Origin: an uncultured virus (IMG/VR IMGVR_UViG_3300011475_000006)
Taxonomy: Duplodnaviria; Heunggongvirae; Uroviricota; Caudoviricetes
Virus record (IMG/VR): IMGVR_UViG_3300011475_000006
Strand: one strand, 5' to 3'
DNA length: 64,000 bases
Each line of letters opens with the position of its first letter. The first letter of the stretch is position 1. The notes under the pieces were generated by a model that worked only from the letters and a program-made list of their open reading frames with translations, was not told the DNA's origin and did not search any database. Positions 8,200 through 63,014 of this stretch are shown here, piece by piece. The translations under genes were made by a program, and so were the position numbers.

Positions 8200-8203
8200 T
8201 TCT

Positions 8204-11941: not shown

Positions 11942-12029
11942 CTGGTGTAACGAGAAAAATAGAACCGCCATATGGCGGTTTTTTTATTCCCTCTTTTTGA
12001 GAGGACTCACGGCAATAAGAGGGGGCTAA

Positions 12030-32514: not shown

Positions 32515-33234
32515 ATGCGTGAAAAATTGCTGGATGCTATCCGTCAGCACGTCGCTGCTGAATACCCCAAAGAAGCCTGCGGCCTGATTGTTCAGTCAGG
32601 CCAGCAACAAATCTTTATTCCCTGCCGCAACATTGCCGATAAGCCCGAGGATACATTCACGCTCTCCCCGGAAGACCAACTCGCTGCCCGCGCGCGCGGT
32701 GAGATCATCATGCTTATTCATTCCCATCCGGATGTGGTTCGGCTGGTGCCCTCAGAGCTGGACCGGATTCAGTGCGACTGGTCGGGGATTGAGTGGGGGA
32801 TCATGTCCTGGCCGGACGGGGATTTTTGTACGATTTCCCCGCGTGAAGACCGGGATTATGCCGGGCGGCAGTGGGTTCTGGGTTATGCGGACTGCTGGGC
32901 GCTTATCCGTGAATTTTATCTGCGCGAATACGGTATTGTTCTCGGGAACTATTCGGTACCTTACGAATGGTGGGAGAGCGGCAAGGAGCGTCTCTACGAC
33001 GACAACTGGGAGCGTGAGGGATTCGTTGAGATTGCCGCCGGTGCAATGCAGCCCGGAGATATCATCATGATGAGTGTACAGGCATCGGTGACTAATCACG
33101 CCGCGGTATATGTGGGTGATAACAACATTCTCCATCATCTGTTCGGGCACCTTTCTTCGCGAACGCCTTATGGAAAATATTATCGCGACAGAACGGTCCG
33201 GGTGGTCAGGCATAAGGACAGAATGCATGGTTAA
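32515..33234 (+). CDS. K: Tail protein gpK (JAB/MPN + NlpC/P60)
   Basis: YPKEACG, HSHPD, DCW, NHAAVY. Confidence 0.9.
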   Translation: MREKLLDAIRQHVAAEYPKEACGLIVQSGQQQIFIPCRNIADKPEDTFTLSPEDQLAARARGEIIMLIHSHPDVVRLVPSELDRIQCDWSGIEWGIMSWPDGDFCTISPREDRDYAGRQWVLGYADCWALIREFYLREYGIVLGNYSVPYEWWESGKERLYDDNWEREGFVEIAAGAMQPGDIIMMSVQASVTNHAAVYVGDNNILHHLFGHLSSRTPYGKYYRDRTVRVVRHKDRMHG

Positions 33235-33847
33235 GACGCTTATTCTCGACGGGAAAATGGCTAAAAAATTCGGTAAGCGCGTTCAGTTTGATGTTGTCGA
33301 TCTGCGCGAAATGCTCAGGGCCATGTGTTCACAGGTTCCCGGGTTCAAAAAATACATGTCGGAAGCTCATATGAAGGGTATCCGTTTCGCCTTTTTTAAC
33401 GGGGATAACAATATCGGGCTGGAAGAGTTCGATATGACGCGTGGTGGAAGCGTGTACCGGATCGTGCCCGTTTATGAGGGGGCCAAAAGTTCGGGCGTCC
33501 TGCAGATAGTTGTCGGCGCCGTTGCGCTGGTCGCCGCATTCTTTACCGCCGGTGCGAGCATGGCCGCCTGGGGCGCGGCGATGAGTGCAACAGCTATCAG
33601 CGCCACGTCAATTTTGACCGGGGTCGGGGTGTCGATGATGCTGGGCGGGGTTGTCCAGATGCTCACACCCCAGCCATCCTTCGGCGCGGGCAAATCCTCC
33701 AGCACGGATAACACGCCTAACTATGCCTTTGGGGCGCCGGTCAACACGGTTGCCATGGGGCATCCCGTTCCCCTGGCTTACGGCGGCTGGATTGAAGTGG
33801 GAGGGGCGATAGTCAGCGCGGGTATGTACTCGAGCGATCAGCAATAA
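33227..33847 (+). CDS. I: Tail assembly protein gpI
   Basis: GVLQIVVGAV; PVPLAYG..VGGAIVSAG. Confidence 0.88.
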   Translation: MVKTLILDGKMAKKFGKRVQFDVVDLREMLRAMCSQVPGFKKYMSEAHMKGIRFAFFNGDNNIGLEEFDMTRGGSVYRIVPVYEGAKSSGVLQIVVGAVALVAAFFTAGASMAAWGAAMSATAISATSILTGVGVSMMLGGVVQMLTPQPSFGAGKSSSTDNTPNYAFGAPVNTVAMGHPVPLAYGGWIEVGGAIVSAGMYSSDQQ

Positions 33848-33932
33848 AGAATTCAACTGAAATAAGATGAACGTTACATTGCGATTACCCTTAGTTATCA
33901 TGTCCATAAAGATGCTAATCAAGGAGATGAGA

Positions 33933-34412
33933 GTGAGAAAATACGGTTTAGTCTTATTAGGTGTGCTGTTTGTTTCAGGCTGCGCCACCCAAAATCAGAA
34001 CAACAACTTACAAAAGCAGTACGCTGAGTTATCAAATTGTCAAGAGGATAACATTACTATGCCAAAACAAATGCCGCATAGTAAAAAGGAGTTTGCTGAA
34101 TTTTTATCTAAGGAAGCTCTTAATGCCTCAGCAGATCAGTTTGTTACCCAGAAGCGTATAGAGATTCTGCAATTAGTTGGTTGGGATAATTCGGTAGCTG
34201 ATGCAATAACGACATGCGGCGCTACCAGAAAGAGTAAGCTGAAAGAAATTGGGTCTAATGTGTTTGAAACAATGAAAACCAGCACTAAAGATACAGAAGA
34301 GCGTCGTGCTCTTGTTGAGGCTTATAGTTCGTGGGAGGCTTATATAACCAGCCAAACGCCACTCGCAAAACAGGATTTTGACTCTAAAGTTAGTTATTAC
34401 AAAAACATGTAA
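33933..34412 (+). CDS. AT-rich lipoprotein moron between I and J
   Basis: AAGGAG SD then GTG; signal RKYGLVLLGVLFVSGC lipobox; terminator 34441-34464. Confidence 0.75.
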   Translation: MRKYGLVLLGVLFVSGCATQNQNNNLQKQYAELSNCQEDNITMPKQMPHSKKEFAEFLSKEALNASADQFVTQKRIEILQLVGWDNSVADAITTCGATRKSKLKEIGSNVFETMKTSTKDTEERRALVEAYSSWEAYITSQTPLAKQDFDSKVSYYKNM

Positions 34413-34476
34413 TAAGGCGCCATTATTAATGCTAACAAATAACCCAGCTTAGGCTGGGTTTTTTAATGGGGTAAAA

Positions 34477-37400
34477 ATGCAACTTCTCCATGGTGAAACC
34501 ATCATACAGGGTGCAAAAGGGGGCGGTGGCAGCGCGCACACTCCGGTAGAGCAACCTGACGATCTGCTGTCGGTCGCAAAATTAAAAATGCTTATTGCCG
34601 TTTCTGAGGGGGAAATACAGGGCGACCTGACCGCTCAGAATATTTTTCTCAACGATACGCCGCTGGCAAACGACAGCGGGGAATATAACTTCAGCGGCGT
34701 GAAATGGGAGTTCCGTAAGGGTACACAGGACCAGACCTATATTGCCGGGATGCCTCAGGTCGATAACGAGCTGGCGGTGGGCACAACTGTCACCACCACC
34801 GCGCCCTGGACACGCCAGTTTACCAATCTTTCCCTGGATGCCATCCGCATCAAGCTCAGCCTTCCGGTCCAGTATCTCTATAAAGATAACGGCGATATGG
34901 TGGGCACGGTCACCGAGTATGCGATCGATTTATCAACGGACGGCGGCGCCTGGAAAACGGTTGTAAACGGCAAGTTTGACGGAAAGACCACGACGGAATA
35001 TCAGCGTGACCACCGTATCGATCTGCCAAAATCCACGTCTGGCTGGTCTGTCAGGGTCAGGCGTATTACGGCTGATGCCAGCGGATCAAATTCGAAACTG
35101 GTTAACGCCTTCAAGGTGTTTTCGTATGCAGAAGTCATCGACAGCAAGCTTCGTTATCCTTTAACCGCGCTCCTGTATGTCGAAGTGGACAGCAGCCAGT
35201 TCAACGGCAGCGCGCCGAAAGTGACCTGTAAGATAAAAGGCAAGCTGATTAAGGTTCCGGATAATTACGATCCGATAACCCGAACCTATTCTGGCTCATG
35301 GTCCGGCGGGTTCAAAATGGCCTGGTCCAATAACCCCGCCTGGATATTTTACGATCTGGTTTTGGATGAAATTTACGGCATGGGCACGCGCGTGGATGCG
35401 TCCATGGTGGATAAGTGGGCGCTGTATTCAATCGCCCAGTACTGTGACGAAATGGTTTCCGACGGGGCCGGTGGCACCGAACCGCGTTTCACCTGCAACG
35501 TTTTCATTCAGAGCCAGGAGGACGCCTGGCAGGTACTTAACGATCTTGCCGCGGTATTTCGTGGAATAACGTTCTGGGGCAACGATCAGATTTATGTCCA
35601 GGCAGACGTCCCGCAGGACGATGTTGACTGGGTTTATAACGTCTCAAACGTTATCGATGGGCTGTTTACTTATGCGGGCGGCTCATACAAAAATCGCTAC
35701 AGCTCCTGCCTGGTGTCCTGGTCCGATCCGCAGAACCATTACAGCGATACCGTTGAGGGGGTCTATGATTCGGCGCTTGTAGAACGTTACGACGTCCGGC
35801 AGACGTCCCTGACCGCAATCGGCTGCACCTCGCAAAGTGAAGCGCACCGACGCGGTCGCTGGGTATTGCTTTCCAATGCCAAAGACGGGACCGTATCGTT
35901 TGGCGTGGGGCTGGACGGTTATATCCCTTTGCCCGCTGAAATTATTGGTGTCGCCGATCCCTTCCGTTCAGGTAAGGAGAACGGGGGCCGCATAAGCGCG
36001 GTCAACGGCCGCCAGATTACCCTTGATCGAGAAATAGACTACGCGGCGAAAGACAGGCTGGTGGTTAACCTTCCCGACGGAAAAGCCCAGACGCGGACAA
36101 TCAGCGCGGTGAGCGCCGATAAAAAAACGGTGACGGTGGCTACGGCATTCAGTCAGGTTCCTGTGGCGGGCGCTGTCTGGGCGATAGACAGTGATAACCT
36201 CGCAATACAGTACTTCAGGGTCACCTCAATCGCGGCTAACGACGACAGCTCAGGCGGTTTCACTATTACGGCCGTTCAGCACGATCCAAACAAATACCGT
36301 TACATCGATGACGGCGTTCGGGTCGAGTCGCCCCCGATCACCGTCACGCCGATAAGCGTCCTGTCTGCTCCGAAGAATATCGTGGTGAGTGAGAGCGATC
36401 ATGTGTCTCAGGGGCTGACTGTCGCAAGCCTGGACGTGTCATGGGATAAGGTAGAGGGCGCAATCCGGTACGTTGCCCAGTGGCGTAAGGACAACGGGGA
36501 CTGGATAAACGTTCCGGTTACCAGCGCGCAGGGTTTCTCGGTTCAGGGCATTTATTCGGGCAGCTATGACGTGCGCGTCCGGGCGCTGAATGCGCAGGAT
36601 ACGTCGTCACCATGGGGATACGGTGAAACAACTTACCTCTCCGGTAAAACGGGAAAACCGGGTACTCCGCTCAACTTCCTGGCGACCGAAGATGTGGTCT
36701 GGCATATCGACCTGACCTGGAAATATCCGGATGGCTCAGGCGACACGGCCTATACAGAGATTCAGCGCGCCACAACTGCCGACTACGCCAATCCTGAACT
36801 GCTGGTACTGGTGCCGTACCCGGCTGCAGATTATCAGCATGGCCCTATGCCTGCCGGAGTTCGCCAGTGGTACCGCGCGCGCCTGATTGACCGTATCGGT
36901 AACACCGGGGACTGGACCGACTGGGTCATGGGCACGTCCTCGATAGATGTCAGCGAAATAACCAATGACATTCTGGAGGATATGAAAAAGTCGGAAACGT
37001 TCAAGGACCTGATCGAGAACGCGGTGGACAGCAACGAAAAAATTGCTGGCATGGCTGACGAAATCAAAAACCATGCCGACGAACTCGAGCAGCAGGCGAA
37101 AGACATCCAGGAGAACGCTGACGGGCTGGCGCAGGCCGAAGTGAAGATCGACGAGATTTCTGTGTCTATGGACGGCATGACGGGCGGGGTGAAGAACTCA
37201 GCCATTGCCATTATCCAGAACGGGCTGGCGCAGGTGGCCACGCGTAAAAGGCTATCCGCAACAGTCGCCGGTAACAGTGCGCAGCTGGATCGTATTGATG
37301 AGGTAATCGTTAACGAGAAGGAGGCAACGGCGCGCTCGCTGCTGAGCCTGCAGACCGACGTTAACGGCAACAAAGCATCCATCAATAGCCTGAATCAGAC

Positions 37401-38355
37401 GTTCTCGGATTACCAGCAGGCTATGGCCACGCAGGTAAACAGCATTACGGCGACCGTGAATGGCCACACTTCGGCGATCACCACCAACGCGGAGGCCATT
37501 GCGAACGTCAACGGCGACCTGAAGGCGATGTACAGCATCAAGGTCGGGTTATCCAGTAACGGCCAGTATTACGCGGCAGGAATGGGGATTGGCGTTGAGA
37601 ATACGCCATCAGGCATGCAGTCGCAGGTTATCTTCCTGGCAGACCGCTTCGCGGTAACGCACCAGGCCGGAGCGACCGTTACGCTTCCGTTCGTTATTCA
37701 GAACGGGCAGACCTTTATCCGAAATACTGTGATTGGTGAAGGGACTATCGATAACACCAAAATCGGCAGCTACATCCAGTCGACAACCTGGGACGGTACA
37801 GGGAACGTTGGCTGGCATATCAACAAATCCGGTTATGCAACATTCAATAATGTGACCATCCGTGGAACTGTGTATGCAACCAATGGGAGTTTCACCGGAG
37901 AGATAAATGCAACGAGTGGAAAATTCAAAGGTACGGTTGAGGCAACAAGTTTCATTGGCGACGTAGCTAACGGTTATGTATTTGCAGATACGGAAATGAC
38001 TGCGGGCAACACCGATACAAAAAGGTCGTTCAGATATACTGACAGCACTACAGGCTCCCTGGACAAACAAGTACTTGTTATGTGTATGATTGATTCATAT
38101 CGTCCAGCAACAGCAGGCACTGCGAGAGTAACGGTCACTATCGCAGGTGCATCTAAACAGTTTGTCGTTCAGTTAAGTAATCTAGGGGTTTCTGCATACA
38201 GCACAACAGATTGCTCAGCCATTATATTTTCTGTAAGAACATCAGCCAGAGTAGTTGATTGCTCTATTGTTGCGAGGGCTGAAGGTGGTGGCGTATCAAT
38301 CAAATCGCCTGCGATGTTAATTATGCGAGGCACCGGTTCGTTTACACAGTTGTAA
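34477..38355 (+). CDS. J: Central tail fibre / host specificity protein gpJ
   Basis: 1292 aa; NNPAWIFYDL, EPRFTCN, FN3-like repeats, FLADRFAV. Confidence 0.93.
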   Translation: MQLLHGETIIQGAKGGGGSAHTPVEQPDDLLSVAKLKMLIAVSEGEIQGDLTAQNIFLNDTPLANDSGEYNFSGVKWEFRKGTQDQTYIAGMPQVDNELAVGTTVTTTAPWTRQFTNLSLDAIRIKLSLPVQYLYKDNGDMVGTVTEYAIDLSTDGGAWKTVVNGKFDGKTTTEYQRDHRIDLPKSTSGWSVRVRRITADASGSNSKLVNAFKVFSYAEVIDSKLRYPLTALLYVEVDSSQFNGSAPKVTCKIKGKLIKVPDNYDPITRTYSGSWSGGFKMAWSNNPAWIFYDLVLDEIYGMGTRVDASMVDKWALYSIAQYCDEMVSDGAGGTEPRFTCNVFIQSQEDAWQVLNDLAAVFRGITFWGNDQIYVQADVPQDDVDWVYNVSNVIDGLFTYAGGSYKNRYSSCLVSWSDPQNHYSDTVEGVYDSALVERYDVRQTSLTAIGCTSQSEAHRRGRWVLLSNAKDGTVSFGVGLDGYIPLPAEIIGVADPFRSGKENGGRISAVNGRQITLDREIDYAAKDRLVVNLPDGKAQTRTISAVSADKKTVTVATAFSQVPVAGAVWAIDSDNLAIQYFRVTSIAANDDSSGGFTITAVQHDPNKYRYIDDGVRVESPPITVTPISVLSAPKNIVVSESDHVSQGLTVASLDVSWDKVEGAIRYVAQWRKDNGDWINVPVTSAQGFSVQGIYSGSYDVRVRALNAQDTSSPWGYGETTYLSGKTGKPGTPLNFLATEDVVWHIDLTWKYPDGSGDTAYTEIQRATTADYANPELLVLVPYPAADYQHGPMPAGVRQWYRARLIDRIGNTGDWTDWVMGTSSIDVSEITNDILEDMKKSETFKDLIENAVDSNEKIAGMADEIKNHADELEQQAKDIQENADGLAQAEVKIDEISVSMDGMTGGVKNSAIAIIQNGLAQVATRKRLSATVAGNSAQLDRIDEVIVNEKEATARSLLSLQTDVNGNKASINSLNQTFSDYQQAMATQVNSITATVNGHTSAITTNAEAIANVNGDLKAMYSIKVGLSSNGQYYAAGMGIGVENTPSGMQSQVIFLADRFAVTHQAGATVTLPFVIQNGQTFIRNTVIGEGTIDNTKIGSYIQSTTWDGTGNVGWHINKSGYATFNNVTIRGTVYATNGSFTGEINATSGKFKGTVEATSFIGDVANGYVFADTEMTAGNTDTKRSFRYTDSTTGSLDKQVLVMCMIDSYRPATAGTARVTVTIAGASKQFVVQLSNLGVSAYSTTDCSAIIFSVRTSARVVDCSIVARAEGGGVSIKSPAMLIMRGTGSFTQL

Positions 38356-38910
38356 TTACGATAATGTATTCATTGTTCTCAAACCCGCTATTTGGCGGGT
38401 TTTTTATTGTCTGGAGAAAATATGCTTTATAACACTGGAACCATAGCCATTAACGGAAATACTGCAACTGGCACCGGCACAAACTGGACGGCACCTGCCA
38501 GCCAGGTTCGCGCTGGCCAGACGATTATCGTGATGTCTAACCCGGTGCAGCTGTTCCAGATTTCATCCGTGAACAGCGCCACGGCAATGACAGTTACGCC
38601 TGCCGCTTCCCCGGCGCTGAGCGGCCAGAAGTATGGAATTCTTGTGTCGGACATTATCTCAGTCGACGGCCTGGCGCAGGCCATGTCTCAGCTCATCAAA
38701 GATTACGACGAGAATATTGGCGCGTGGGAAACATTCGCCACCACCTCGGCGAACCAGAGCATCACCGTTACTATCAACGGCAGCCCTGTGACGATCCCCG
38801 GCATCGGTAAACTGGCACAGAAAGGAAGTAACGGTGCGCTGGCTGTTGCTGACGGCGGAACGGGAGCAACTAAGGCAGAAGACGCTCGCACAAACCTCGG
38901 TTTGGGAGAT
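36997..38910 (+). repeat. Left arm of a 1914-bp inverted repeat (J C-terminus + fibre N-terminus)
   Basis: Near-identical reverse complement at 40725-42638. Confidence 0.9.
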
Positions 38911-39726
38911 ACCAACACGGCCAACTTCGCAAGCCTAGAAATTGGTGCCAAAAAACCCTCTACTTCGAGCTTCGTTGATTTCCATTTTCTTGGCACTAAC
39001 GACTATGACGCGCGCATTCTCTGCGGTGGTAATTCTAATGGTGCCATGGGGAAAGGAGACTTCACATTTTACGCCGGGAAATACGTTTTCATTGGCGACA
39101 GCTTTGAATTTCGTAACCCTATTACCTGTCAGAACAGCATTAGCGCCTCTGCAAAAATTTCGACCACTTCTGATATGGAGTGCAAAACTAAAATTGCTGT
39201 TTTAGCTTCAGCTGACAATCAAAATGCCCACCTGTGGTTCTATGGTACCGGAGGGGCATCCAGGGGGGTTATTTACTCCAGTCAAACAGGAATTATCCAG
39301 ATCCGTCCTGACAACAATGATAATGGCGGCTCTAACGGTTACTCGTTTGCATTTGGGGCTGATGGTAAGTTCACCTGCGTCACGATGAATCAGACCTCAG
39401 ATGAGCGAGTGAAATTCGACAAAGAACCCGTCAGTAACGCTCTGGAGAAGATTTGCTCCCTGACGGGTTATACGTTCAGCATCCAACTGACTGAATCGGA
39501 ATCGCTGCAGAGCGCAGGCATCATAGCTCAGGATTTGGAAAAGGTGTTGCCCGTCGCTGTAAGTTCTGGCGGGACCGGCACTACACCGACCGGAGAAGAG
39601 ATTAACGATCTCAAAACCGTGGACTACAGCGCAATGAGCGCACTGTATGTGGAAGCGATTAAGGAGCTGGTCGAACGGGTGAGTAGGCTTGAAGAAGACC
39701 TTAACGTATTTCGTGGGAAGGAATAG
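38422..39726 (+). CDS. Side tail fibre A with C-terminal S74 intramolecular chaperone
   Basis: Shared N-terminus to ARTNLGLG; TSDERVK...GIIAQD..VDYS..EAIKEL. Confidence 0.88.
   Translation: MLYNTGTIAINGNTATGTGTNWTAPASQVRAGQTIIVMSNPVQLFQISSVNSATAMTVTPAASPALSGQKYGILVSDIISVDGLAQAMSQLIKDYDENIGAWETFATTSANQSITVTINGSPVTIPGIGKLAQKGSNGALAVADGGTGATKAEDARTNLGLGDTNTANFASLEIGAKKPSTSSFVDFHFLGTNDYDARILCGGNSNGAMGKGDFTFYAGKYVFIGDSFEFRNPITCQNSISASAKISTTSDMECKTKIAVLASADNQNAHLWFYGTGGASRGVIYSSQTGIIQIRPDNNDNGGSNGYSFAFGADGKFTCVTMNQTSDERVKFDKEPVSNALEKICSLTGYTFSIQLTESESLQSAGIIAQDLEKVLPVAVSSGGTGTTPTGEEINDLKTVDYSAMSALYVEAIKELVERVSRLEEDLNVFRGKE
38885..38910 (+). other. gix/pix-like invertase crossover site (left)
   Basis: CTCGCAC-AAACCTCGGTTT-GGGAGAT; core as in Mu gix. 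Confidence 0.75.
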
Positions 39727-39728
39727 GC

Positions 39729-41213
39729 TTAATCCCCATCAGTTGGAAGGGGCAACGATTCCTGTTGCTGCTGTTTAAGGTTGTAAGGAGAGTTAACAGG
39801 CATCTCAACGCGCACAGACACAAACTGATCGTGGGGAATATCGACCGGATCGCCATTACTCAAGCCGTCCCGTTCGTTCCTGGCGAACGCCGGCGCTTCC
39901 GGGTATGTGCGGTGATAGGTTTTCACTAACACCGAACCGTCAGCATGAACCTCATAATCCAGCCAGATGAGCGGCTGTTTATTTCGGTCGGTTGGTATCT
40001 CGAATCCCCCATCAATACCGCCCCAGATAGCGTCAGAATTTAGACCACAGCACCCCTCAATCAGGTATTGCCCTGGTGCAATACGTAGAACAGTACATCC
40101 TTCTGATTCGTCGTTAACCTCACTACAGCCGTCAGAAAATACTTTCACAATGGGAGATGCTCGCTTAATGAAACCGTTGGCATCGACCGTAGTGTTTTTT
40201 GTTCCCCAAAGATTGTTGTATTGAGCTGTGCCTGCAGAAATGCTGGAATCATTACCTGCGGAGATCATCGCATTACCGGTTCTGTAATCTACCCACAACG
40301 TTGAAGCTGTNNNNNNNNNNCCCGCGCGGAAGTAAAGAGAGGCACCATACTGGAAGGTCTGCCCGCCAATAACGAGGTCTGAATTTAAAGTGCGAAACGC
40401 AGCTGTACCGCCATTTAATCTTCGCTCGTTCATACATTGTGCAACGTTCCCGATCTGAGAATCAAAACCAGTCCCAAGTGCTGCGCCTGAGGCGATGATA
40501 GCCCCGTCATTAGCGCGAAGAGAGAGGTAGCGATTTAAAGTGTTATTGGCTCCGTTGATGTGTAGCGTCAGGTAGTCGATACCGTCTGCGCGCCTTTCAG
40601 CATAGAAGCGGGCATAGTTTTTGATTGACCCGCTGTTGTCCTTCGATGTTGTCGTTAAAATTCCTGAAGCTGAAGAATCGTTATCTCGCGTAAGATTCAA
40701 ATTACTGAAGGCAACATTATCGCTGTTTCCCAAACCGAGGTTTGTGCGAGCGTCTTCTGCCTTAGCTGCTCCGGTTCCTCCGTCAGCAACAGCCAGCGCA
40801 CCGTTACTCCCTTTCTGTGCCAGTTTACCGATGCCGGGGATCGTTACAGAGGTTCCATTGATGGTAACTGTGATGCTCTGGTTTGCAGAGGTGGTGGCGA
40901 ACGTCTCCCACGCGCCAATGTTCTCGTCATACTCTTTGATGAGCTGCGACATGGCCTGCGCCAGGCCGTCGACTGAGATAATGTCCGATACAAGAATTCC
41001 ATACTTCTGGCCGCTGAGCGCAGGGGAAGCTGCAGGCGTAACCGTCATTGACGTGGCGCTGTTCACAGATGAAATCTGGAACAGCTGCACCGGGTTAGAC
41101 ATCACGATAATCGTCTGGCCAGCGCGAACCTGGCTGGCGGGTGCTGTCCAGTTTGTGCCGGTGCCGGTGGCGGTGTTTCCGTTAATGGCTATGGTTCCAG
41201 TGTTATAAAGCAT
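39729..41213 (-). CDS. Side tail fibre B (contains the 10-N gap)
   Basis: Same N-terminus as fibre A up to NLGLG, different C-terminus (NTTVDANGFIKRASPIVKVF..GIDGGFEIP). Confidence 0.82.
   Translation of the reverse strand: MLYNTGTIAINGNTATGTGTNWTAPASQVRAGQTIIVMSNPVQLFQISSVNSATSMTVTPAASPALSGQKYGILVSDIISVDGLAQAMSQLIKEYDENIGAWETFATTSANQSITVTINGTSVTIPGIGKLAQKGSNGALAVADGGTGAAKAEDARTNLGLGNSDNVAFSNLNLTRDNDSSASGILTTTSKDNSGSIKNYARFYAERRADGIDYLTLHINGANNTLNRYLSLRANDGAIIASGAALGTGFDSQIGNVAQCMNERRLNGGTAAFRTLNSDLVIGGQTFQYGASLYFRAXXXXTASTLWVDYRTGNAMISAGNDSSISAGTAQYNNLWGTKNTTVDANGFIKRASPIVKVFSDGCSEVNDESEGCTVLRIAPGQYLIEGCCGLNSDAIWGGIDGGFEIPTDRNKQPLIWLDYEVHADGSVLVKTYHRTYPEAPAFARNERDGLSNGDPVDIPHDQFVSVRVEMPVNSPYNLKQQQQESLPLPTDGD
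40725..40750 (-). other. gix/pix-like invertase crossover site (right, inverted)
   Basis: - strand CTCGCAC-AAACCTCGGTTT-GGGAAAC. Confidence 0.75.
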
Positions 41214-42638
41214 ATTTTCTCCAGACAATAAAAAACCCGCCAAATAGCGGGTTTGAGAACAATAAATTGATTATTGTAATTACAACTGTGTAAACGAACC
41301 GGTGCCTCGCATAATCAACATCGCAGGCGATTTAATTGATACACCACCACCTTCAGCCCTCGCAACAATAGAGCAATCAACTACTCTGGCTGATGTTCTT
41401 ACAGAAAATATAATGGCTGAGCAATCTGTAGTGCTGTATGCAGAAACCCCTTGATTACTTAACTGAACGACAAACTGTTTAGATGCACCTGCGATAGTGA
41501 CCGTTACTCTCGCAGTGCCTGCTGTTGCTGGGCGGTATGAATCAATCATACACATAACGAGTACTTGTTTGTCCAGGGAGCCTGTAGTGCTGTCAGTATA
41601 TCTGAACGACCTTTTTGTATCGGTGTTTCCCGCAGTCATTTCTGTATCTGCAAATACATAACCGTTAGCTACGTCGCCAATGAAACTTGTTGCCTCAACC
41701 GTGCCTTTGAATTTTCCACTCGTTGCATTTATCTCTCCGGTAAAACTCCCATTGGTTGCATACACAGTTCCACGGATGGTCACATTATTGAATGTTGCAT
41801 AACCGGATTTGTTGATATGCCAGCCAACGTTCCCTGTCCCGTCCCAGGTTGTCGACTGGATGTAGCTGCCTATTTTTAGGTTGCTGATTGTCCCATCACC
41901 AATGACCGTGTCCCGGATTATCGTTTGCCCGTTCTGAATAACGAACGGAAGCGTAACGGTCGCTCCGGCCTGGTGAGTCACCGCGAAACGGTCAGCCAGG
42001 AAGATAACCTGCGACTGCATCCCGGATGGCGTATTCTCAACGCCGATCCCCATCCCCGCGGCGTAATACTGCCCGTTGCTGGAGACGCCAACCTTGATGT
42101 TGTACATCGCGCTCAGGTCGCCATTTACGTTCGCTATCGCCTGAGCGTTAGTTGTAATGGCTGAGGTATGCCCGTTCACCGTCGCCGTTATGCCGTTTAT
42201 CTGCGTGGCCGTAGCCTGCTGATAGTCGGAGAACGTCTGATTCAGGCTGTTGATGGATGCCTTGTTGCCGTTGACGTCCGTCTGCAGGCTCAGCAGCGAG
42301 CGCGCCGTTGCCTCCTTCTCGTTAACGATTACCTCATCAATACGATCCAGCTGCGCACTGTTACCGGCGACCGTTGCGGATAGCCTTTTACGCGTAGCCA
42401 CCTGCGCCAGCCCGTTCTGGATAATGGCAATGGCTGAGTTTTTCACCCCGCCCGTCATGCCGTCCATAGAGACAGAAATTTCATCAATCTTAACTTCGGC
42501 CTGGGCCAGCCCGTCAGCATTTTCTTTGATGGCCAGCGCCTGCAGCTCAAGTTCATCGTTGGCCTGTTTGATGTCGTCAGCCATGCCAGCAATTTTTTCA
42601 TTGCTGTCTACCGCGTTCTCGATCAGGTCTTTGAACGT
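40725..42638 (-). repeat. Right arm of the 1914-bp inverted repeat
   Basis: Reverse complement of 36997-38910 with scattered substitutions. Confidence 0.9.
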
Positions 42639-45134
42639 ATCGGAGTCTTTAATTTCCTCCAGGATCACATCTGTGATGTCGGAAACATCGATGCTGGCCT
42701 GTCCTCGCACCCATTCTGCGTACCCTGATTCGTTGCCGCTGCGGTCCACCAGCTGCGCGCGGTACCAGAAAATCTGCCCAGCCTTAAGGCCCATCTGCTG
42801 ATATTTGCGCTGCGGATAAGGCACATCGGCCAGCAGCATCGCATCGTCCTCGGTACCGGTCAGGCTGTACTGAATTTCCGTCTTAAGCGTGTCGTCGGTA
42901 TTAGCCGGGAATCCCCAGTTCAGCTCGATACCGAATACCACGTTTTCAGAAGCGATGAAGCCAACCGGCTTCGGTGGGTTGCCCACTTTCCCCGTCAGTG
43001 TTTTCTCTTCTGAATAGCCCCAGCCGGACGAGATTTCTGCGGCATTGATTGCGCGCACGCGCACCAGGTAGCGCCCTGCATAAATCCCGGGGACGTCGAA
43101 TGACGTGGTAGAGCTGCGTGGCACGTTTACCCAGTTCCCGTCGTTACGCCGCCATTGAGCCTCATAGGCTATAGCGTTCTGCGCCTGGTCCCAGCTCACG
43201 CGCATCGTTTCGACGCTGATATTTTGCTGCACCACTGAAAACGAGCTGATCACGATGTTCGCAGGTGGCGACTGGTTGCCCGGCGGGATCACGCTCACCG
43301 GCCGCTGGTCAATGATGGCTCCGGTATCAATGCGATCGAATTTATCCGGTTCGTGATTTGCACCGACGATTGTGAACGTGCCGTCATTATTATCAGTTAC
43401 CGTAATAACGCGATACTGCTGTGCGTAGAGTTCATCAGACTCAATGACCCATACGGCCTCAGCCACAGGCGTTTCGCTGTAAGCGGTCGTAACGGTCACT
43501 TTATTGCCCGTTATCGACTGAATGGTGCGAGACTGTGAAACACCCGATGGAAGATTGACAATCATCCTGTCGGCTGCCGAAGCATCCGGAGCCCTGTCCA
43601 GGGTCAGCACGCGACCATTCACCGCAGAGATACGGCCGCCCAAGTCGCGCCCGGAGAGATTTCGGTCCGCTACAGCGATTACATAGCCGGGCTGTGGAAT
43701 GTTGCCATCTTCCCCTACATTGAAAGTAACAATGCGATCTTTATTGTTGGTGAGGATCCCCCATCGCCCTTTCCGATTCGCTTCCGACTGACGGGTACAA
43801 CCGATCGCAGTTATCTCAAGTTGATTAAACCCATAACGCGCAACAAGTGCCTGCTCAAAAACAGGCTCCATCGCATCAGAATAGGCGTTATCAGGATCCG
43901 ACCAGGACACCAGCGCATTGGTGTAACGGTTCTTTGTAGTACTGCTGGAATAGGTAAATCGGCCATCAATAACGTTCGCATGAGTGTATGTAAAATCAAC
44001 ATCTCTCGGCATGTCCGCCAGCGCTACAATCTGGTCGTCGCCCCAGTAGGTCATCCCGCGGAAGATAGCAGCAAAATCACGCAGGACCGTATAAGCGTCG
44101 TTGCGTTCCTGAATGTATACGTTGCAGGTATAACGTGGTTCGGTACCACTTCCGCCTTTGCCATCCGGTACCAGTTGATCGCAATACTGTGCAACCTGGT
44201 AGAGCGTCCATTTATCTATGTTGGCCGTTGTAAGACGATCCCCAAGTCCGAAACGGTCGCTGACCACCAGGTCGTAGAAAATCCATGCAGGGTTATCGGT
44301 CCAGGCCCATTTAAATGTCCCAGCCCACGTACCGCTATAAGTGCGGGTTTCGGGGTCGTAAGTATCCGGTACGCGGATAACTCGGCCGCGGGGCTCGCAG
44401 GAGATCTGCGGGATAGAGCCGTTAAACTGGCTGGAATCGAATTCGATATAAAGCAGCGCTGTGTTTGGATAGCGTAATTTGGCGTCAATTACCTCGGTGA
44501 AGCTCTGCAGCATCATCGTGTCGCCGATCTTCGCGCTGTTGGCATCAGACGTAATCTTACGTAGTCGGATTGTCCAGGTGCTGCCAGCCTGAGGTAAATC
44601 AATACGGTGGCTGCGCTCGTAACCAGAAGTCGTTTTGCCGGTCACGCTGGTATTGAGTACCGTCTGCCATGTACCGCCGTCCATCTGCAGGTCAATCGCA
44701 TAATTAACCGAGTAACCTACCAGATCGCCGTCGTCCTCCTGCTTGAAAAGCGAAGGCCATTTCATACGCAGGCGAACCGCTGAAAGCTGCGTATTGGTAA
44801 ACGTGCGCGTCCACGCTGTAGCGCTCGATACCTCAGTTCCCACGCTGATTTCGTTTTCGGTACCCGGGATCCCTTGAATGTATTTTTGTGCCTGAGTTCC
44901 TGGCCGAAACTCCCACGTCACACCGCTGAAGTTTTGGGAGCCGTCAGCATTCTCCAGAGCCGTTCCGTCCAGGTAGATATCTTTGCCGGTTAGCTGCCCT
45001 GCAAACTCCCCTTCCCCAAGCGCAACCAGTATTTTAGCCTTCGCTACAGATTGCAGATCGTCAGGCTGTTCGGTAGGGGTTCGGGAACTGGAGCTGCCGC
45101 CCTTGCGGCCTTTTATAGCGATTGCAGTTGCCAT
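41280..45134 (-). CDS. J: gpJ-like central tail fibre
   Basis: 1284 aa; DNPAWIFYDL, EPRYTCN; C-terminus nearly identical to the prophage 1 J. Confidence 0.92.
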   Translation of the reverse strand: MATAIAIKGRKGGSSSSRTPTEQPDDLQSVAKAKILVALGEGEFAGQLTGKDIYLDGTALENADGSQNFSGVTWEFRPGTQAQKYIQGIPGTENEISVGTEVSSATAWTRTFTNTQLSAVRLRMKWPSLFKQEDDGDLVGYSVNYAIDLQMDGGTWQTVLNTSVTGKTTSGYERSHRIDLPQAGSTWTIRLRKITSDANSAKIGDTMMLQSFTEVIDAKLRYPNTALLYIEFDSSQFNGSIPQISCEPRGRVIRVPDTYDPETRTYSGTWAGTFKWAWTDNPAWIFYDLVVSDRFGLGDRLTTANIDKWTLYQVAQYCDQLVPDGKGGSGTEPRYTCNVYIQERNDAYTVLRDFAAIFRGMTYWGDDQIVALADMPRDVDFTYTHANVIDGRFTYSSSTTKNRYTNALVSWSDPDNAYSDAMEPVFEQALVARYGFNQLEITAIGCTRQSEANRKGRWGILTNNKDRIVTFNVGEDGNIPQPGYVIAVADRNLSGRDLGGRISAVNGRVLTLDRAPDASAADRMIVNLPSGVSQSRTIQSITGNKVTVTTAYSETPVAEAVWVIESDELYAQQYRVITVTDNNDGTFTIVGANHEPDKFDRIDTGAIIDQRPVSVIPPGNQSPPANIVISSFSVVQQNISVETMRVSWDQAQNAIAYEAQWRRNDGNWVNVPRSSTTSFDVPGIYAGRYLVRVRAINAAEISSGWGYSEEKTLTGKVGNPPKPVGFIASENVVFGIELNWGFPANTDDTLKTEIQYSLTGTEDDAMLLADVPYPQRKYQQMGLKAGQIFWYRAQLVDRSGNESGYAEWVRGQASIDVSDITDVILEEIKDSDTFKDLIENAVDSNEKIAGMADDIKQANDELELQALAIKENADGLAQAEVKIDEISVSMDGMTGGVKNSAIAIIQNGLAQVATRKRLSATVAGNSAQLDRIDEVIVNEKEATARSLLSLQTDVNGNKASINSLNQTFSDYQQATATQINGITATVNGHTSAITTNAQAIANVNGDLSAMYNIKVGVSSNGQYYAAGMGIGVENTPSGMQSQVIFLADRFAVTHQAGATVTLPFVIQNGQTIIRDTVIGDGTISNLKIGSYIQSTTWDGTGNVGWHINKSGYATFNNVTIRGTVYATNGSFTGEINATSGKFKGTVEATSFIGDVANGYVFADTEMTAGNTDTKRSFRYTDSTTGSLDKQVLVMCMIDSYRPATAGTARVTVTIAGASKQFVVQLSNQGVSAYSTTDCSAIIFSVRTSARVVDCSIVARAEGGGVSIKSPAMLIMRGTGSFTQL

Positions 45135-45186
45135 ATTGCACCCATAAAAAAAGCCACCCGAAGGTGGCCTGAAAGAAGGTATTTAT

Positions 45187-45783
45187 TTATTGCTGATCTT
45201 CAACATAAATCCCGGCAGAAATAATCGCGCCACCGATTCGCCGGCGACCATACAGGAGCGGTACCGAATTCCCCTGGGCTGTCGTATTTGTGACTCCACC
45301 AAAGGCATAACTGGCCTTGTTGTCCGCCGATTGCTTGCTGGCGAGTCCGGTTGTCTGCGGCGAGAGCATCTGCACAATGCCGCCCAAGGCCATTGCCCCT
45401 CCGATCTGGAACATAATGTTACTCGCGGTGATACCTACTCCAGGCATCCAGATTGCAGCAGCAACAAGTGCAACACCGAGGATGGTTTGGAAGATACCTC
45501 CTCGCTTACTCCCAACGATAACTGGCGCTATGCGAATATCAGCCGAGCTCTGATCCATGACGAGTTCATCATTGTTCAGGTTACGCTTACCGCTGAAAAC
45601 CGCGTAAGTCAGGCCCCGTTGCTTACTGGTATTCAGGAAACGTTCAAAGCCGGGAAGGATGACACATAGGGCTCGAACTGCTTCTTTTGGAGAAGAAACA
45701 TATAGTTTGAATTCACGACCAAAGGTAGCCCCGAGGACTCCGTAAAGGCGAATCGTTCTGATTGAGTCACGTGCTTTAATCAC
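45187..45783 (-). CDS. I: gpI-like tail assembly protein
   Basis: IRLYGVLG; VPLLYG.RRIGGAIISAG; start uncertain. Confidence 0.85.
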   Translation of the reverse strand: MIKARDSIRTIRLYGVLGATFGREFKLYVSSPKEAVRALCVILPGFERFLNTSKQRGLTYAVFSGKRNLNNDELVMDQSSADIRIAPVIVGSKRGGIFQTILGVALVAAAIWMPGVGITASNIMFQIGGAMALGGIVQMLSPQTTGLASKQSADNKASYAFGGVTNTTAQGNSVPLLYGRRRIGGAIISAGIYVEDQQ

Positions 45784-45880
45784 AAGCAATCCACTCCCAA
45801 AAAAGCCCATTGATTAAGATGGGCGCTGCGTAATTACATGGCATATGGCAATTAGATTAGAAAGTTGATTGAATATAGAT

Positions 45881-46528
45881 TTAAACCCAACTTTGAATCC
45901 ATTTCCAAAATGAAGAACACTGTTTCAGTGATTCAATCGACTTCATTTCAGGGTGGTTTAGATTGAATGTTACGAAGCTATTAGGGCATTTTGCGGATAG
46001 TGAAAAATAGCTCACTAAACAAGCATCAATCTTCGCATCATCGGTGGAGTGGTACATGCCATCAATAAGTGAGGCAGTTGGAGGAAGATACTTCGCCTTC
46101 ATCAACTGATAATTCAAATCTGTTACTTCCATAACTGGTGCCATAGCACAAATTTGCGCTGCATTGAGATAGGATTTCCCATCCCCCTGGCAATTAGCCG
46201 AAGCATCTACGAATGCGTCTTGCAAATCAGATCGCAGCCTTACATAGTCTTGATCCAAAGCCTTAGAGCTTGAGAACACACCGAAAATGCCAAATGCGAC
46301 TCCTAAAGCGAACATCCCTCCGCCAACTTTGAAATCACAGTCACCCCATGTAATCCATCTAAATAAAAACAATGTCAGCCCAAGCCCTGTGAATAGTTGC
46401 CCACCGCCAGTCCATAGATTGAAATCGCAACTGAAAATATTATTAACTAAAAGTTAACCACCAATTATGGTAGGGCTTAATATTAAAATCCATTTTAAAA
46501 AACCCTTTATTTCATTGTTTAGTTGCAT
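45881..46528 (-). pseudogene. AT-rich membrane-protein moron with an in-frame stop at codon 25
   Basis: ATG 46528 MQLNNEIKGFLKWILILSPTIIGG* (TAA 46454-46456) continues in frame into ORF 45881-46372. Confidence 0.6.
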
Positions 46529-46567
46529 GCATTAGACCAGCCTAATTAATGTTTAAGACAATTATTA

Positions 46568-47281
46568 TTAAATAAAAAGCGATTTGTGACGAACTGTTTT
46601 CATTGTTCGATCGCGCCAATAACCGCCATAAGGAACCCGTTGGCTCAAGTGCCCATAAAGGTGATGCAGTAGCATGTTGCCTTCCAGCAGAATCCCCGCA
46701 TGATTCCACTTATCAGCCTGAACCTGCATGATCACCATATCGCCTGGTTTTGGCGGCCCGTCGAATTCAAGGAATCCGCACTCATACCAGCAATCCTGAT
46801 AGAAATTGTCCGGATAGTCGTTTTCCCACCAGGGATAATCGACCCGGTAATCGTGAAGCTCGATACCATGCGTTTGCCGGAAATAGCTCATTACCAGCCC
46901 CCAGCAGTCAAAGTGACCAAGTACAAACGGACGCTCGAGCAGCGGCAGTTCTCCACGCGGCTGAATGGTCCGTAAATCCCCCTCCGGCCAGCTCACGATA
47001 TGCCAGGGTAAAAGGGTTGCATCGCATTGCGCTTTATCCAGTTCGCTCGGTTGCGTCGTGGCATCAGGGTGACTGTGAGCGATGGCAATGACCTTCCCCC
47101 AGTCTTCAGCAGCTGCATAGTCTTCGGGGCAAAGTACAAAATTGTCCTCCGGCACCACGGCAAGATTCCGGCACGGGAAATAACGTTCAACACGGCTTTT
47201 CTGCGCCACCACGCCGCAACACTCGCGAGGATACTCAGCTGCAGCATGGGCCATAATCGCATCGATGGTTTTCTGACGCAT
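46568..47281 (-). CDS. K: gpK-like tail protein
   Basis: YPRECCG, HSHPD, DCW, NHAGI. Confidence 0.9.
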   Translation of the reverse strand: MRQKTIDAIMAHAAAEYPRECCGVVAQKSRVERYFPCRNLAVVPEDNFVLCPEDYAAAEDWGKVIAIAHSHPDATTQPSELDKAQCDATLLPWHIVSWPEGDLRTIQPRGELPLLERPFVLGHFDCWGLVMSYFRQTHGIELHDYRVDYPWWENDYPDNFYQDCWYECGFLEFDGPPKPGDMVIMQVQADKWNHAGILLEGNMLLHHLYGHLSQRVPYGGYWRDRTMKTVRHKSLFI

Positions 47282-47282
47282 A

Positions 47283-48038
47283 TCAGCTCCTGATCAAAGA
47301 CGTGCCTGGGAACCCACCGAACGGCAGTTCGTTGCCGTCTCCATGCCGGAGCTTACAGGCCGTAAGCGTGCCGTTGCATTCGTCCAGAGAAGGGTCGCTC
47401 ACCTGGTTGTTGTTTTTATCGAAATAGCGGGTTCCGGCATAGTCACAGCCGTCGCCGGTGCGATATTTATTCCGGATACACCAGGTACACAGAGAATGAA
47501 GCTGACGTGTCGGGATCATCAATCCCTGCAGGTCCATCGGACTGGTAAGAACAAACTCAATACTTTCGCCGGGCAACTCACTATTTTTACCGTCGATGTA
47601 GAAAACTCGTTTCCTCACCTGCAGGGGATCTGCTGTGGGATTTCCATCCGGGAAATTGCGCGCATCGAGATAATGCGTAAATGTGTCATGAATAGTGACC
47701 TTGGCCTGCAGCATATCGTCATAAGCAAGACAGAGCGCCGTGATTGAGCTGTCAATATTTGCCACGGTAAGCGTAGGCTGCGCACTGCTGCCATAGGTAG
47801 AGGCTTCCAGCCCCTCCAGCTTATATGGCCAGGCACCATACTCTTCGCCCTGCCACCAGATGCTCTTCGCCTTAAGCTTTGATTCGTCGCCACCAGCAGC
47901 CGCAATTTCATCTTCGGTATGCGGCAAGTTATATGCATGAAAGCGCAGAACGTTGTCCAGACCAAACGCAGAACCGTCCACCTCGAGAAGACGCATTTTT
48001 TCACCAGGTTCGAGGCGTTGATAATCTTCGGTAATCAT
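47283..48038 (-). CDS. L: gpL-like minor tail protein
   Basis: CTWC..YR.GDGCDY; LPFGGFPG. Confidence 0.9.
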   Translation of the reverse strand: MITEDYQRLEPGEKMRLLEVDGSAFGLDNVLRFHAYNLPHTEDEIAAAGGDESKLKAKSIWWQGEEYGAWPYKLEGLEASTYGSSAQPTLTVANIDSSITALCLAYDDMLQAKVTIHDTFTHYLDARNFPDGNPTADPLQVRKRVFYIDGKNSELPGESIEFVLTSPMDLQGLMIPTRQLHSLCTWCIRNKYRTGDGCDYAGTRYFDKNNNQVSDPSLDECNGTLTACKLRHGDGNELPFGGFPGTSLIRS

Positions 48039-48382
48039 GGTGCGTATGCCTGCTTGAAGGTTGCTTTTATGATCATCACTTTGCTGGAGAGCGGCTGGGC
48101 TTTAATGGAATCAGCTTCTATCCGGTATAAACCGGTTTCGCCAACAGGGGATGTCCAGATAAAGGATTTTGTAATGTGTTCGCGGCAAAAACTCAGAGCT
48201 GCAAGTATCTCTGCCTTCTTCCCAGTAAGAGTCATTGGCCAGGACTGTTTTTCAGGATTAATTCCATCCCCAACGATCTGCTCATAACCGTCACCAAAGG
48301 ATGCAGAACGAGTTGAGTAGCTGAACTCCCCCTCCATTCCTGCATGTATCTGGGTTCGCCAAGTGAATGTTTGGATCGCCAC
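48035..48382 (-). CDS. M: gpM-like distal tail protein
   Basis: SFGDGYEQ; SFIWTSP. Confidence 0.88.
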   Translation of the reverse strand: MAIQTFTWRTQIHAGMEGEFSYSTRSASFGDGYEQIVGDGINPEKQSWPMTLTGKKAEILAALSFCREHITKSFIWTSPVGETGLYRIEADSIKAQPLSSKVMIIKATFKQAYAP

Positions 48383-48444
48383 TTATCCTCCGGGTATAAA
48401 AAAACCCGCAGAAGCGGGTTATTCACAAGAGTGCATACGAGGTA

Positions 48445-48765
48445 TTAAAACGTTTCTATGGTCGAAATTCGGTAGACATAAGGGCCACGCTGCATTCCGT
48501 CCTCGTCAGTTTCGTTATATGTAATGACACCGTCTACATTTAGGGGGATATCAAGAATATCAATTGTTGCGGTGTTTTTTTGGATTGTTGAACCCCAATC
48601 CAGAAGAGCTAACCCATCCCCAAATTCTTCCATTACGAATGGGTAACGCTCAACTCCCCATGTCTCAAAGTTTTCTACAAAACCAAAACCGAAGGCAGCA
48701 GAGTCATAATTTAGCTTTTTGTCATTCAGGCACTGGAGAAACGAATGAAATGCTTGATTTTCCAT
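48445..48765 (-). CDS. AT-rich hypothetical moron between TMP and M
   Basis: 106-aa ORF followed by a terminator (48397-48420); start uncertain. Confidence 0.5.
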   Translation of the reverse strand: MENQAFHSFLQCLNDKKLNYDSAAFGFGFVENFETWGVERYPFVMEEFGDGLALLDWGSTIQKNTATIDILDIPLNVDGVITYNETDEDGMQRGPYVYRISTIETF

Positions 48766-48922
48766 CCCCTACCCACAGGGCTGTCACTTTAATTGAAGCC
48801 ATTCAAAAAACCTTAACTTATTAATTTCAAGGAGATAATCATAACACCTCAGTATGAGGATGGTCTGTATTCTTGATACGATTACCAAAAATAGGGGTAC
48901 TACAAATGAGAGTTCCTGTTAA

Positions 48923-51835: not shown

Positions 51836-52152
51836 TCCGCCCTCTCTTTATGCATAACTTTTAGTGCGGCGCTCTCCATGATTCGGATGTCCGAAAGCGC
51901 GGTTGCCTCGTCGTCAACGTGGTGCAGGCGCATCACCCAGGGCAGCACGTTGTAATCAAGCCCTGATGCGCCTCCCATGCCCGTGCGCCACTGCGTGCTG
52001 ACAGCCTGAAACACCAGGAATGAAGGCCATACATCTGGCCAGACGTCGATGTATTGATCGTCGTAGTCATCCGGCGTAAGCCCATAGGGTGCCAGGTCTG
52101 CCGCTGTGGGTTCAGGCGTATAGAATGCAGAGGCAACCGCTATCAGTTTTTT
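51832..52152 (-). CDS. T-like (DUF1799-like) part of the tail chaperone -1 frameshift fusion
   Basis: Slippery AAAAAAC (52152 to 52146) before TGA; -1 frame LIAVASAFYTPEP..VWP..QWRTGMGGASGLDY. Confidence 0.75.
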   Translation of the reverse strand, partial: KKLIAVASAFYTPEPTAADLAPYGLTPDDYDDQYIDVWPDVWPSFLVFQAVSTQWRTGMGGASGLDYNVLPWVMRLHHVDDEATALSDIRIMESAALKVMHKERAE

Positions 52153-52454
52153 TCGCGCTGCCCCATCAGTTCGCGATAGTAGGTTTCAGGGATAGCCTTC
52201 ATTGCAGCCGGATAGTTTTCCAGCAGCACCGACAGATTTTCCGCGTTGAATGCATCGGGGAGCGCCCAGCCAGAAATAATTTCCATCAGAAAATCAGTGG
52301 CAGTTTTGCCTTCCAGTTTTTCCAGATCAGCAAGCTCTTTAAGTGGCTTATGATTGAACGTGAAGGTCAGTACACCATCCTCATCGCCAGCGCGCGGGAT
52401 CGAGACGTTGGCCTTGAAAGTTGGTTTGGGCTGAAGGGTGAATTTAGTCGCCAT
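52143..52454 (-). CDS. Tail assembly chaperone
   Basis: 103 aa between tube and TMP; ends REKN at the slippery site. Confidence 0.8.
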   Translation of the reverse strand: MATKFTLQPKPTFKANVSIPRAGDEDGVLTFTFNHKPLKELADLEKLEGKTATDFLMEIISGWALPDAFNAENLSVLLENYPAAMKAIPETYYRELMGQREKN

Positions 52455-52514
52455 CGTTGCCTCTTAGTAAAAAAAACCTCCATGGAGGAGGCTCAGATTT
52501 TCGTTATGCCCGGC

Positions 52515-53186
52515 TTATGCCGCGGCGCCTGTAATTTTATAGAAGGTCATCGCAGGCGATTGCAGGTTCAGCACGACGCTTACCGTTTCGACTTCGTTCA
52601 CCGCCGTGGCCGGGGTGTCGTCAAAAGATGCCGTGGCCGCCCAGTAACGGTTCTCCTTCGCCTTCGGCACGTACATGTACGCCGCCACAGTCTCTTCGTC
52701 TTCGTCCAGCTGGCGCAGCAGCGGATAAACTGGGAGCGTGGAGTCATGCGCGATCGAGTAAGTCTGAGAGGCAGCGGATTTAAAGGTATTCAGGTTGCGC
52801 TGGCGATCATCGCTGAGGAACTGAATCTGCGTGGTGTTCTGATCACCACCAGATTTCGATACCTCAGTGATTTGTGGCAGTTCGGTCCATTCTTCAATTT
52901 TGCGAATAGAGCCGGAACCGCCACCCGCCGCGTATTTGTTTTTGTTGGTGGTATTGATGTTGCGAAGAGTGACAGCATTCTCCGCAATCGCGTCGATTTT
53001 CGCGATAACGTTATCAATACCCGACCAGTTGCAGTTCACGTGAACGATATCGCCGACCGCAATTTCGTCCGCGGCGCTGACGGTGATCACCGCGTGCTCA
53101 GCATTCGTCGCGCCGGTGAAAGTAATGGCCGGGCCATAGCCCGACGCCAGATAAACATGAGCGCCGTTAGGCAGTGCAAAGCCCAT
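52515..53186 (-). CDS. Tail tube protein
   Basis: MGFALPNGA; WTELPQI..SGGDQ. Confidence 0.8.
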   Translation of the reverse strand: MGFALPNGAHVYLASGYGPAITFTGATNAEHAVITVSAADEIAVGDIVHVNCNWSGIDNVIAKIDAIAENAVTLRNINTTNKNKYAAGGGSGSIRKIEEWTELPQITEVSKSGGDQNTTQIQFLSDDRQRNLNTFKSAASQTYSIAHDSTLPVYPLLRQLDEDEETVAAYMYVPKAKENRYWAATASFDDTPATAVNEVETVSVVLNLQSPAMTFYKITGAAA

Positions 53187-53254
53187 AATGGTTTCTCCTT
53201 CAGAAACGGGAAAACCGGCTCAAGGCCGGTCAGTTGTGGGGCATCAGAGGGGAA

Positions 53255-62839: not shown

Positions 62840-63014
62840 ATTATTCCTCAATCCATAAAGACACCTCAACTCTATACCTTTGCAGTCGCTATGTCAGCCC
62901 TATGGATAATCAGAGCATTTGAAGTTACTGCCCGGCCCAAATGATTAGGTAAGGATTATCTTAATCACTAGCGCTTATGCTTGTTGATTACTGCCTGACT
63001 GCCAGACTGTTCAG

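Follow-up and report, generated by a model that had tools for sequence, protein, structure and literature searches.

The stretch of DNA investigated here, a 64,000-nucleotide record of an uncultured virus of the Caudoviricetes (IMG/VR IMGVR_UViG_3300011475_000006, in the following termed the window), contains two convergent tail-fibre genes that are enclosed on either side by the genes of a different prophage and that carry inverted crossover sites of the kind used by serine invertases. An earlier sequence-only reading had proposed that both genes form a single invertible cassette, which is shared between the two phages and whose inversion would swap their receptor-binding tips. Its distinction of two phages is confirmed by their Pfam content. 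Prophage 1, on the left, is lambda-like and of the cos type, with an integrase (1-1011), a cI-like repressor, a Nu1/gpA terminase, a lambda-type portal, capsid protein E and tail genes from V to J. Prophage 2, on the right, encodes Terminase_2 and Terminase_6N, a DUF4055 portal, a Mu F-like protein, a Gp13-like capsid protein, a tape measure protein and J, and it is also present in the nearest genome (termed G001), with 98.3% identity over 25.1 kb. The features of the region between both J genes are as follows.

34477 to 38355, plus strand: tail-tip protein J of prophage 1, 1292 aa (Pfam FNIII-A_GpJ, Phage-tail_3 and Phage_Tail_Tip); by repeat comparison, its last ~470 codons are located inside the left arm of an inverted repeat
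36943 to 38907: left arm of the inverted repeat (J C-terminus and constant fibre part C1)
38422 to 39726, plus strand: fibre gene 1, composed of C1 (to 38907) and tip A (38908-39723), from translation and tblastn
38885 to 38910, plus strand: left crossover site, C half and tip A half, GCTCGCACAAACC/TC/GGTTTGGGAGA; homology to G001 starts exactly at 38892
39729 to 40310, minus strand: C-terminal 194 codons of tip B (Phage_tail_C_2), contiguous with tip A, from translation and Pfam
40311 to 40320: run of 10 N, the sole one in the window, inside tip B of fibre gene 2, probably a scaffold gap
40321 to 41213, minus strand: N-proximal tip B and constant part C2, both from fibre gene 2; the block matches the G001 prophage exactly
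40725 to 40750, minus strand: right crossover site, C half and tip B half, GCTCGCACAAACC/TC/GGTTTGGGAAA as read on this strand
40728 to 42692: right arm of the inverted repeat (C2 and J C-terminus)
41280 to 45134, minus strand: tail-tip protein J of prophage 2, 1284 aa (Pfam), with no mismatch to G001 across the gene

The two fibre genes correspond to open reading frames at 38392-39726 (plus strand, with a probable start codon ATG at 38422) and 39729-41243 (minus strand), as defined from the list of open reading frames and their translation. Both had been described as complete. Both frames are indeed open, but the second gene is interrupted by the 10 N, which appear as XXXX in its translation. 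Their stop codons (TAG at 39724-39726 on the plus strand and TAA at 39729-39731 on the minus strand) are 2 bp apart at the reported coordinates. This spacing is a property of the cassette rather than a mark of two prophages meeting, since it is identical in G001 (where the frames of locus L007 end at 4187 and 4190) and in Escherichia coli MSB1_9D (coding sequences ending at 9841 and 9844). The near-identity of the N-termini is equally borne out by translations and tblastn, with 96.9% identity over the first 162 residues and a split directly after the sequence ARTNLGLG. Beyond this point, the proteins continue into different tips, as had been claimed: tip A ends in the Peptidase_S74 intramolecular chaperone domain (PF13884, residues 336-390 of fibre 1, E 1.4e-10, 41.7 bits at a cut-off of 22), whereas tip B has a Phage_tail_C_2 domain. 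The surrounding inverted repeat, whose arms of 1,965 nt are 92% complementary (91.8% identical), covers the constant fibre part together with the last ~470 codons of both J genes and ends at the 26-bp site. The longest exact blocks between its arms comprise 95, 92, 88 and 86 nt.

The 26-bp crossover sites at 38885-38910 and 40725-40750 are inverted relative to each other and agree in 25 of 26 positions. Their core AAACCTCGGTTT (AAACC/TC/GGTTT, with an asymmetric central dinucleotide TC), which we take to be the reverse complement of the gix core, occurs in exactly two copies in the 64 kb, at 38892 on the plus and at 40743 on the minus strand; if one mismatch is permitted, 0.22 matches would be expected by chance, and two matches were reached in 2 of 100 shuffled sequences. 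The last shared residues ARTNLGLG are encoded across this core and both sites are thus positioned at the junction between the constant and the variable part of the fibre. A table of half-sites compiled over the window and its relatives distinguishes a C half-site (acgctcgcacAAACC/TC), an invertase half-site (gcaatctataAAACG/TC), a tip A half-site (GGTTTgggagatacc) and a tip B half-site (GGTTTgggaaacagc). G001 and the viral contig L036 show the combinations C/tip B and invertase/tip A, and the metagenome contig L055 shows the opposite state, C/tip A and invertase/tip B, although its tip B and the start of its invertase match their counterparts in G001 at 100% identity. Among loose contig ends from sequencing runs of relatives, the invertase flank adjoins tip A in run X5 and tip B in run X4. 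Among relatives, the segment thus flips in nature with the core as the exact point of exchange, since the four half-sites have recombined there in different genomes.

A gene expected to drive this exchange is found next to the cassette in relatives of the window. In G001, J is followed by the constant part fused to tip B, by the convergent tip A at a distance of 2 bp, by a site with the core AAACGTCGGTTT and then by a gene of 188 aa with Resolvase and HTH_7 domains. Its best matches among solved structures, 3uj3 (E 3.7e-88), which we take to be Mu Gin, and 4m6f (E 9.5e-87), both cover residues 4-186 and were deposited as 'DNA-invertase'. The same gene order is found in complete E. coli genomes (MSB1_9D and H6) beside an annotated 'recombinase family protein'. 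The assignment to the Gin/Pin/Cin type made in the sequence-only reading was therefore right, as relatives carry the same cassette beside a serine invertase with half-sites recombined at the core. In contrast, no invertase gene was detected in the window, either by Pfam on its 41 open reading frames, by tblastn at E<=10 or by blastn, and blastn found no DNA in the window resembling the invertase gene region of G001. In known systems, the Fis-dependent recombinational enhancer, which is needed in cis, is located inside the 5' part of the invertase gene. Because the window lacks such DNA, the enhancer would be missing from it too, although no search for Fis sites was made.

The cassette shares features with several characterized systems. 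It resembles the P segment of e14 with PinE in E. coli K-12, which PinQ and PinR also invert, in its ~1.8-kb segment, in the short inverted repeats inside convergent fibre genes and in the serine invertase that adjoins the segment in relatives of the window. The published e14 repeat TTGGTTTGGGAGAAGG contains the tip A-side half-site GGTTTGGGAGA of the window (PMC12529663). The crossover sites listed for prophages of strain EC958 include types with ...ACCTC GGTTTACGAGAA (PMC4134206, Table 3), and a half-site of the type GGTTT(G/A)GGAGAA is common to this table and to the e14 repeat (PMC4134206, PMC12529663). Unlike in e14, each tip in the window is a single self-contained part of a gene, either S74 or Phage_tail_C_2, with no separate tfa assembly gene, and the invertase gene is missing. 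As in the G segment of Mu with Gin and the C segment of P1 with Cin, the 26-bp sites mark the boundary between constant and variable fibre parts, and the invertase of G001 matches the two 'DNA-invertase' structures. In contrast to Mu and P1, which are myoviruses, the phages described here are lambdoid siphoviruses, the fibre is a side fibre encoded after J and the tips are unrelated to S and U. A further analogy is to EC958, whose invertible fibre segments of 2-3 kb with 26-bp sites had alternative orientations assembled as spurious contigs (PMC4134206); there, the arrangement was resolved by long reads, whereas the layout of the window rests on a scaffold gap and involves two different prophages. 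The window contains an ordinary Gin/Pin-type invertible fibre-tip cassette of lambdoid Enterobacter prophages.

Three further loci depart, or may depart, from this arrangement. In the second prophage of G001 (locus L008, G001:C1:1166000-1185999, at 11360-12700), the constant part is fused to tip A with 89.7% amino acid identity. The fibre lacks a convergent tip and an invertase and is followed by TetR-type and arginase-family genes, and it is for this reason a fixed version of the same fibre. The locus L045 (G024:C1) contains two copies of AAACCTCGGTTT on the same strand and with the same central dinucleotide, at 6211 and 7829, even though the tip gene next to the second copy is encoded on the opposite strand. 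The invertase starts ~395 nt beyond. The second copy may be dead, or it may be surplus in a cassette that has more than two sites. In an IMG/VR contig (L037:5284-6644), tip A and a tip B-like segment are located on one strand with the invertase ~2.8 kb away, which suggests a cassette with more than two tips.

The sequence-only reading had overlooked the 10 N at 40311-40320; 10 N is a common conventional length of a scaffold gap. Between the same flanks, G001, L036, L054 and L055 contain the four nucleotides ATCG, and contigs from the runs X4 and X5 that cross this place are also six letters shorter. Because all six relatives that cover the place disagree with its length, the run probably constitutes a gap rather than masked sequence. 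Base-for-base masking is the less likely explanation, as it would require an insertion of 6 nt in a stretch that is otherwise identical to G001, in a position where 6/6 relatives carry 4 nt. The frame of fibre gene 2 remains open only since the difference between 10 and 4 amounts to 6. Close to this gap, the parentage of the sequence changes. The comparison to G001 shows 44 mismatches in 38892-39948 (4.2%), a single one at 40188, none in 40321-45999 and 8 in 46000-53999, with the tip B block at 39729-40188 accounting for 7 mismatches to the cassette of G001. The block to the left, consisting of C1, tip A and the 194 C-terminal codons of tip B, thus appears to be a different copy of the cassette from the block to the right, which is formed by the remainder of tip B, C2 and J2 of the G001-type prophage, and the two copies would meet at the gap, because the divergence drops from ~4% to 0% beside it. 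The left block extends 122 nt past its last difference to the G001 type, or 126 nt once the four absent bases are included, which is presumably close to k-1 in a de Bruijn assembly with k=127, although the fit is inexact and was not used as evidence.

These properties lead us to favour, with a probability of about 70%, an explanation in which a pair of ordinary cassettes, both of them probably accompanied by a separate invertase, were joined in silico at a scaffold gap. In each cassette, the constant part C of 162 aa ending in ARTNLGLG would be connected to one of two convergent tips, A or B. A Gin-like serine invertase, encoded just outside of the cassette, would cut at the central TC of the two inverted 26-bp sites and flip the 1.85-kb segment, thereby fusing the other tip to C. 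The strain would probably harbour two such prophages with separate cassettes and invertases, whose canonical ends would be C1/tip A...tip B/invertase for prophage 1 and C2/tip B...tip A/invertase for prophage 2. During assembly, the left part of the prophage 1 cassette would have been scaffolded through the 10-N gap to the right part of the prophage 2 cassette. Placed in a stretch of tip B where both copies are nearly identical, this join would give the false impression of a single shared cassette. We infer that the join is artificial and that the invertase of prophage 1 is located elsewhere in the genome.

A survey of the layout in other sequences is in line with this explanation. As comparators, we used the 24 other loci that are readable past the variable region, composed of a set of 12, a set of 8 new loci (drawn from ten, two of which repeated loci of the first set), 2 viral and 2 metagenome loci; a scaffold with an N-run (L024) and six draft contigs ending <=410 nt past the C part were excluded. 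On the far side of the variable region, 17 of these loci contain a full invertase, one a 40-aa remnant of it and five no invertase within the flank, while in the last (L054) the cassette is flanked by an invertase at either end. None of the 24 shows the situation of the window, with another C part or a J gene on the far side. Among 81 genomes of the genus, 45 showed some match, and the best match in G001 spans positions 501-2852 of 2852; no match among those listed fully covers both fibre genes and none of the genomes contains two C matches close together. Similarly, among the 65 complete E. coli genomes and the 56 phage records with a match, not one covers at least 80% of 38300-41300 in one place. 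In raw data, 23 sequencing runs share part of 33000-40300, the best of them with 46% of sampled words, and none is therefore the strain of the window. Four of these (X1, X2, X4 and X5) were examined as contigs; they represent relatives only and are silent on the strain of the window, and none of the contigs listed crosses the whole stretch or connects C1 with C2. An exact 46-mer of the left-block variant (39700-39745) matched neither metagenome nor viral contigs, and the natural right neighbour of the cassette lineage of prophage 1 was consequently not found in either collection. A 36-mer of tip A matched two viral contigs, both with an invertase and neither of the same lineage. The proposal of a single shared cassette, in which one inversion would exchange the tips, is thus not supported: the adjacency on which it relies depends on the 10-N gap, whose length differs from the 4 nt of all six relatives and which is located next to the switch in divergence, the arrangement is not found among the comparators and the window lacks an invertase gene.

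That assembly is prone to fail at cassettes of this kind is illustrated by several relatives. In the metagenome contig L054 (2,216 nt), the same Gin-like invertase gene flanks the cassette on both sides in opposite directions (invertase/tip A and invertase/tip B), in a mirror image of the layout of the window. L054 is most simply explained as a chimera of both orientations; alternatively, recombination between two prophages could have yielded it as the reciprocal product. In a public scaffold of Enterobacter mori (L024:7574-8001), 15 N at 7980-7994 join an invertase gene without its first 50 codons directly to the start codon region of a fibre gene, so that a scaffold join is questionable here as well. 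A scaffold of the same strain (L027) ends <=2 nt past the matched C part and thus at the crossover site, and six draft contigs stop <=410 nt after the C part. In EC958, flipped fibre segments gave rise to spurious contigs in three prophages of one strain, and their incorporation into the assembly creates artefacts (PMC4134206).

Several points weigh against an artificial join. The join may be correct, as scaffolders use read pairs and the near-identical stretch is maybe short enough to be spanned. The arms of the inverted repeat differ (92%), unlike in a simple hairpin chimera of one flipping prophage such as L054 probably represents. The divergence from G001 is mosaic elsewhere in prophage 2 too (56.5-61.5 kb), and for this reason the change of parentage near the gap could be natural. 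The second cassette copy of the strain and its invertase gene are both presumed.

We consider it doubtful, though worth weighing, that the junction is genuine and was generated by recombination. In the better of two variants, itself rather unlikely, homologous recombination by RecA in tip B between the cassettes of the two prophages would have created the junction. In tail-to-tail prophages, this would have deleted the intervening DNA, whereas in prophages of the same direction it would have inverted the intervening chromosome and left, at another place, a reciprocal junction with the cassette between two invertases. One segment would then serve both fibre genes, and its flipping via the crossover sites or the 1.9-kb arms would swap the tips. 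This variant accounts for a switch in parentage inside tip B, at 39948-40321, where both lineages are nearly identical, as would be expected for a homologous crossover. It is also compatible with the observation that C1/tip A and C2/tip B are both natural states of the junction, and the exact blocks of 95, 92, 88 and 86 nt between the arms exceed the minimal length for RecA recombination. A second copy of the cassette would in addition explain why the assembler broke at this place. At odds with it are the survey (0/24 comparator loci, 0/65 matching E. coli genomes and 0/56 matching phage records, with no genome of the genus containing two nearby C matches) and the fact that the adjacency depends on a gap of the wrong length. 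RecA recombination and an artificial join predict the same local sequence.

A correct scaffold, which we regard as improbable, would describe two unrelated prophages, of the cos type and of the Terminase_6 type, fused tail to tail through one invertible cassette with neither an invertase nor an enhancer in cis. In case the junction is real, the proposed exchange of tips is geometrically correct. Each flip, mediated by an invertase in trans or by RecA acting on the 1.9-kb arms, would reciprocally exchange the receptor-binding tips of both phages, whose host ranges would be coupled through a single switch although the phages are different. Both prophages would also be locked into the chromosome, as neither would retain a right end of its own, and a mirror junction of invertase, cassette and invertase may exist elsewhere in it. 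Such an arrangement would be of interest for prophage domestication and host-range switching. In published cases of inversion in trans, the segment is nevertheless accompanied by an invertase gene. For EC958, such action was proposed for a truncated invertase, as in Phi4, whose truncated gene is still found beside the segment (PMC4134206). The window, as described above, contains no such gene next to its cassette. Presumably, pinE similarly adjoins the P segment of e14.

A second variant of a genuine junction, in which an invertase would have recombined the crossover site of prophage 1 with that of prophage 2, leading to a deletion or a large inversion and leaving a cassette that belongs entirely to one prophage, appears highly improbable. 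In its favour, homology to G001 breaks off precisely at the core (38892), and sites of different prophages have the core and half-sites in common. Action in trans on the segments of other prophages has been described for PinQ, PinR and PinE on e14 (PMC12529663) and proposed for Phi4 of EC958 (PMC4134206). The cassette in the window is of mixed parentage, since its left part diverges from G001 by ~4% and its right part matches G001 exactly, for which a join at the crossover site alone is insufficient, and the N-run would still need to be explained. Moreover, invertases of this family strongly favour inversion, with both sites on one supercoiled domain and the enhancer in cis. Finally, a simple hairpin chimera of one flipping prophage was rejected, given that the arms continue into different phages and share only 92% identity.

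If, as we favour, the two cassettes were joined artificially, the locus would add an ordinary case from Enterobacter prophages to the known examples of fibre-tip switching, together with a half-site table that defines the point of exchange. It would at the same time serve as a warning that invertible cassettes common to several prophages yield chimeric scaffolds that resemble new biology.

Besides the fibre region, three genes of the window deserve mention. The early region of prophage 1 encodes a methyltransferase of the MT-A70 family (8150-8869, plus strand). A frame of 441 aa with a pectate-lyase-like fold (PF12708, E 1.1e-7) is located at 15027-16352 on the plus strand between the lysis genes and Nu1 of the same prophage, which is an unusual site. 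In prophage 2, a homologue of Ivy, the inhibitor of vertebrate lysozyme (PF08816, E 2.8e-19), is encoded at 62426-62869 on the minus strand between the lysis genes and the terminase, where it looks like a moron.

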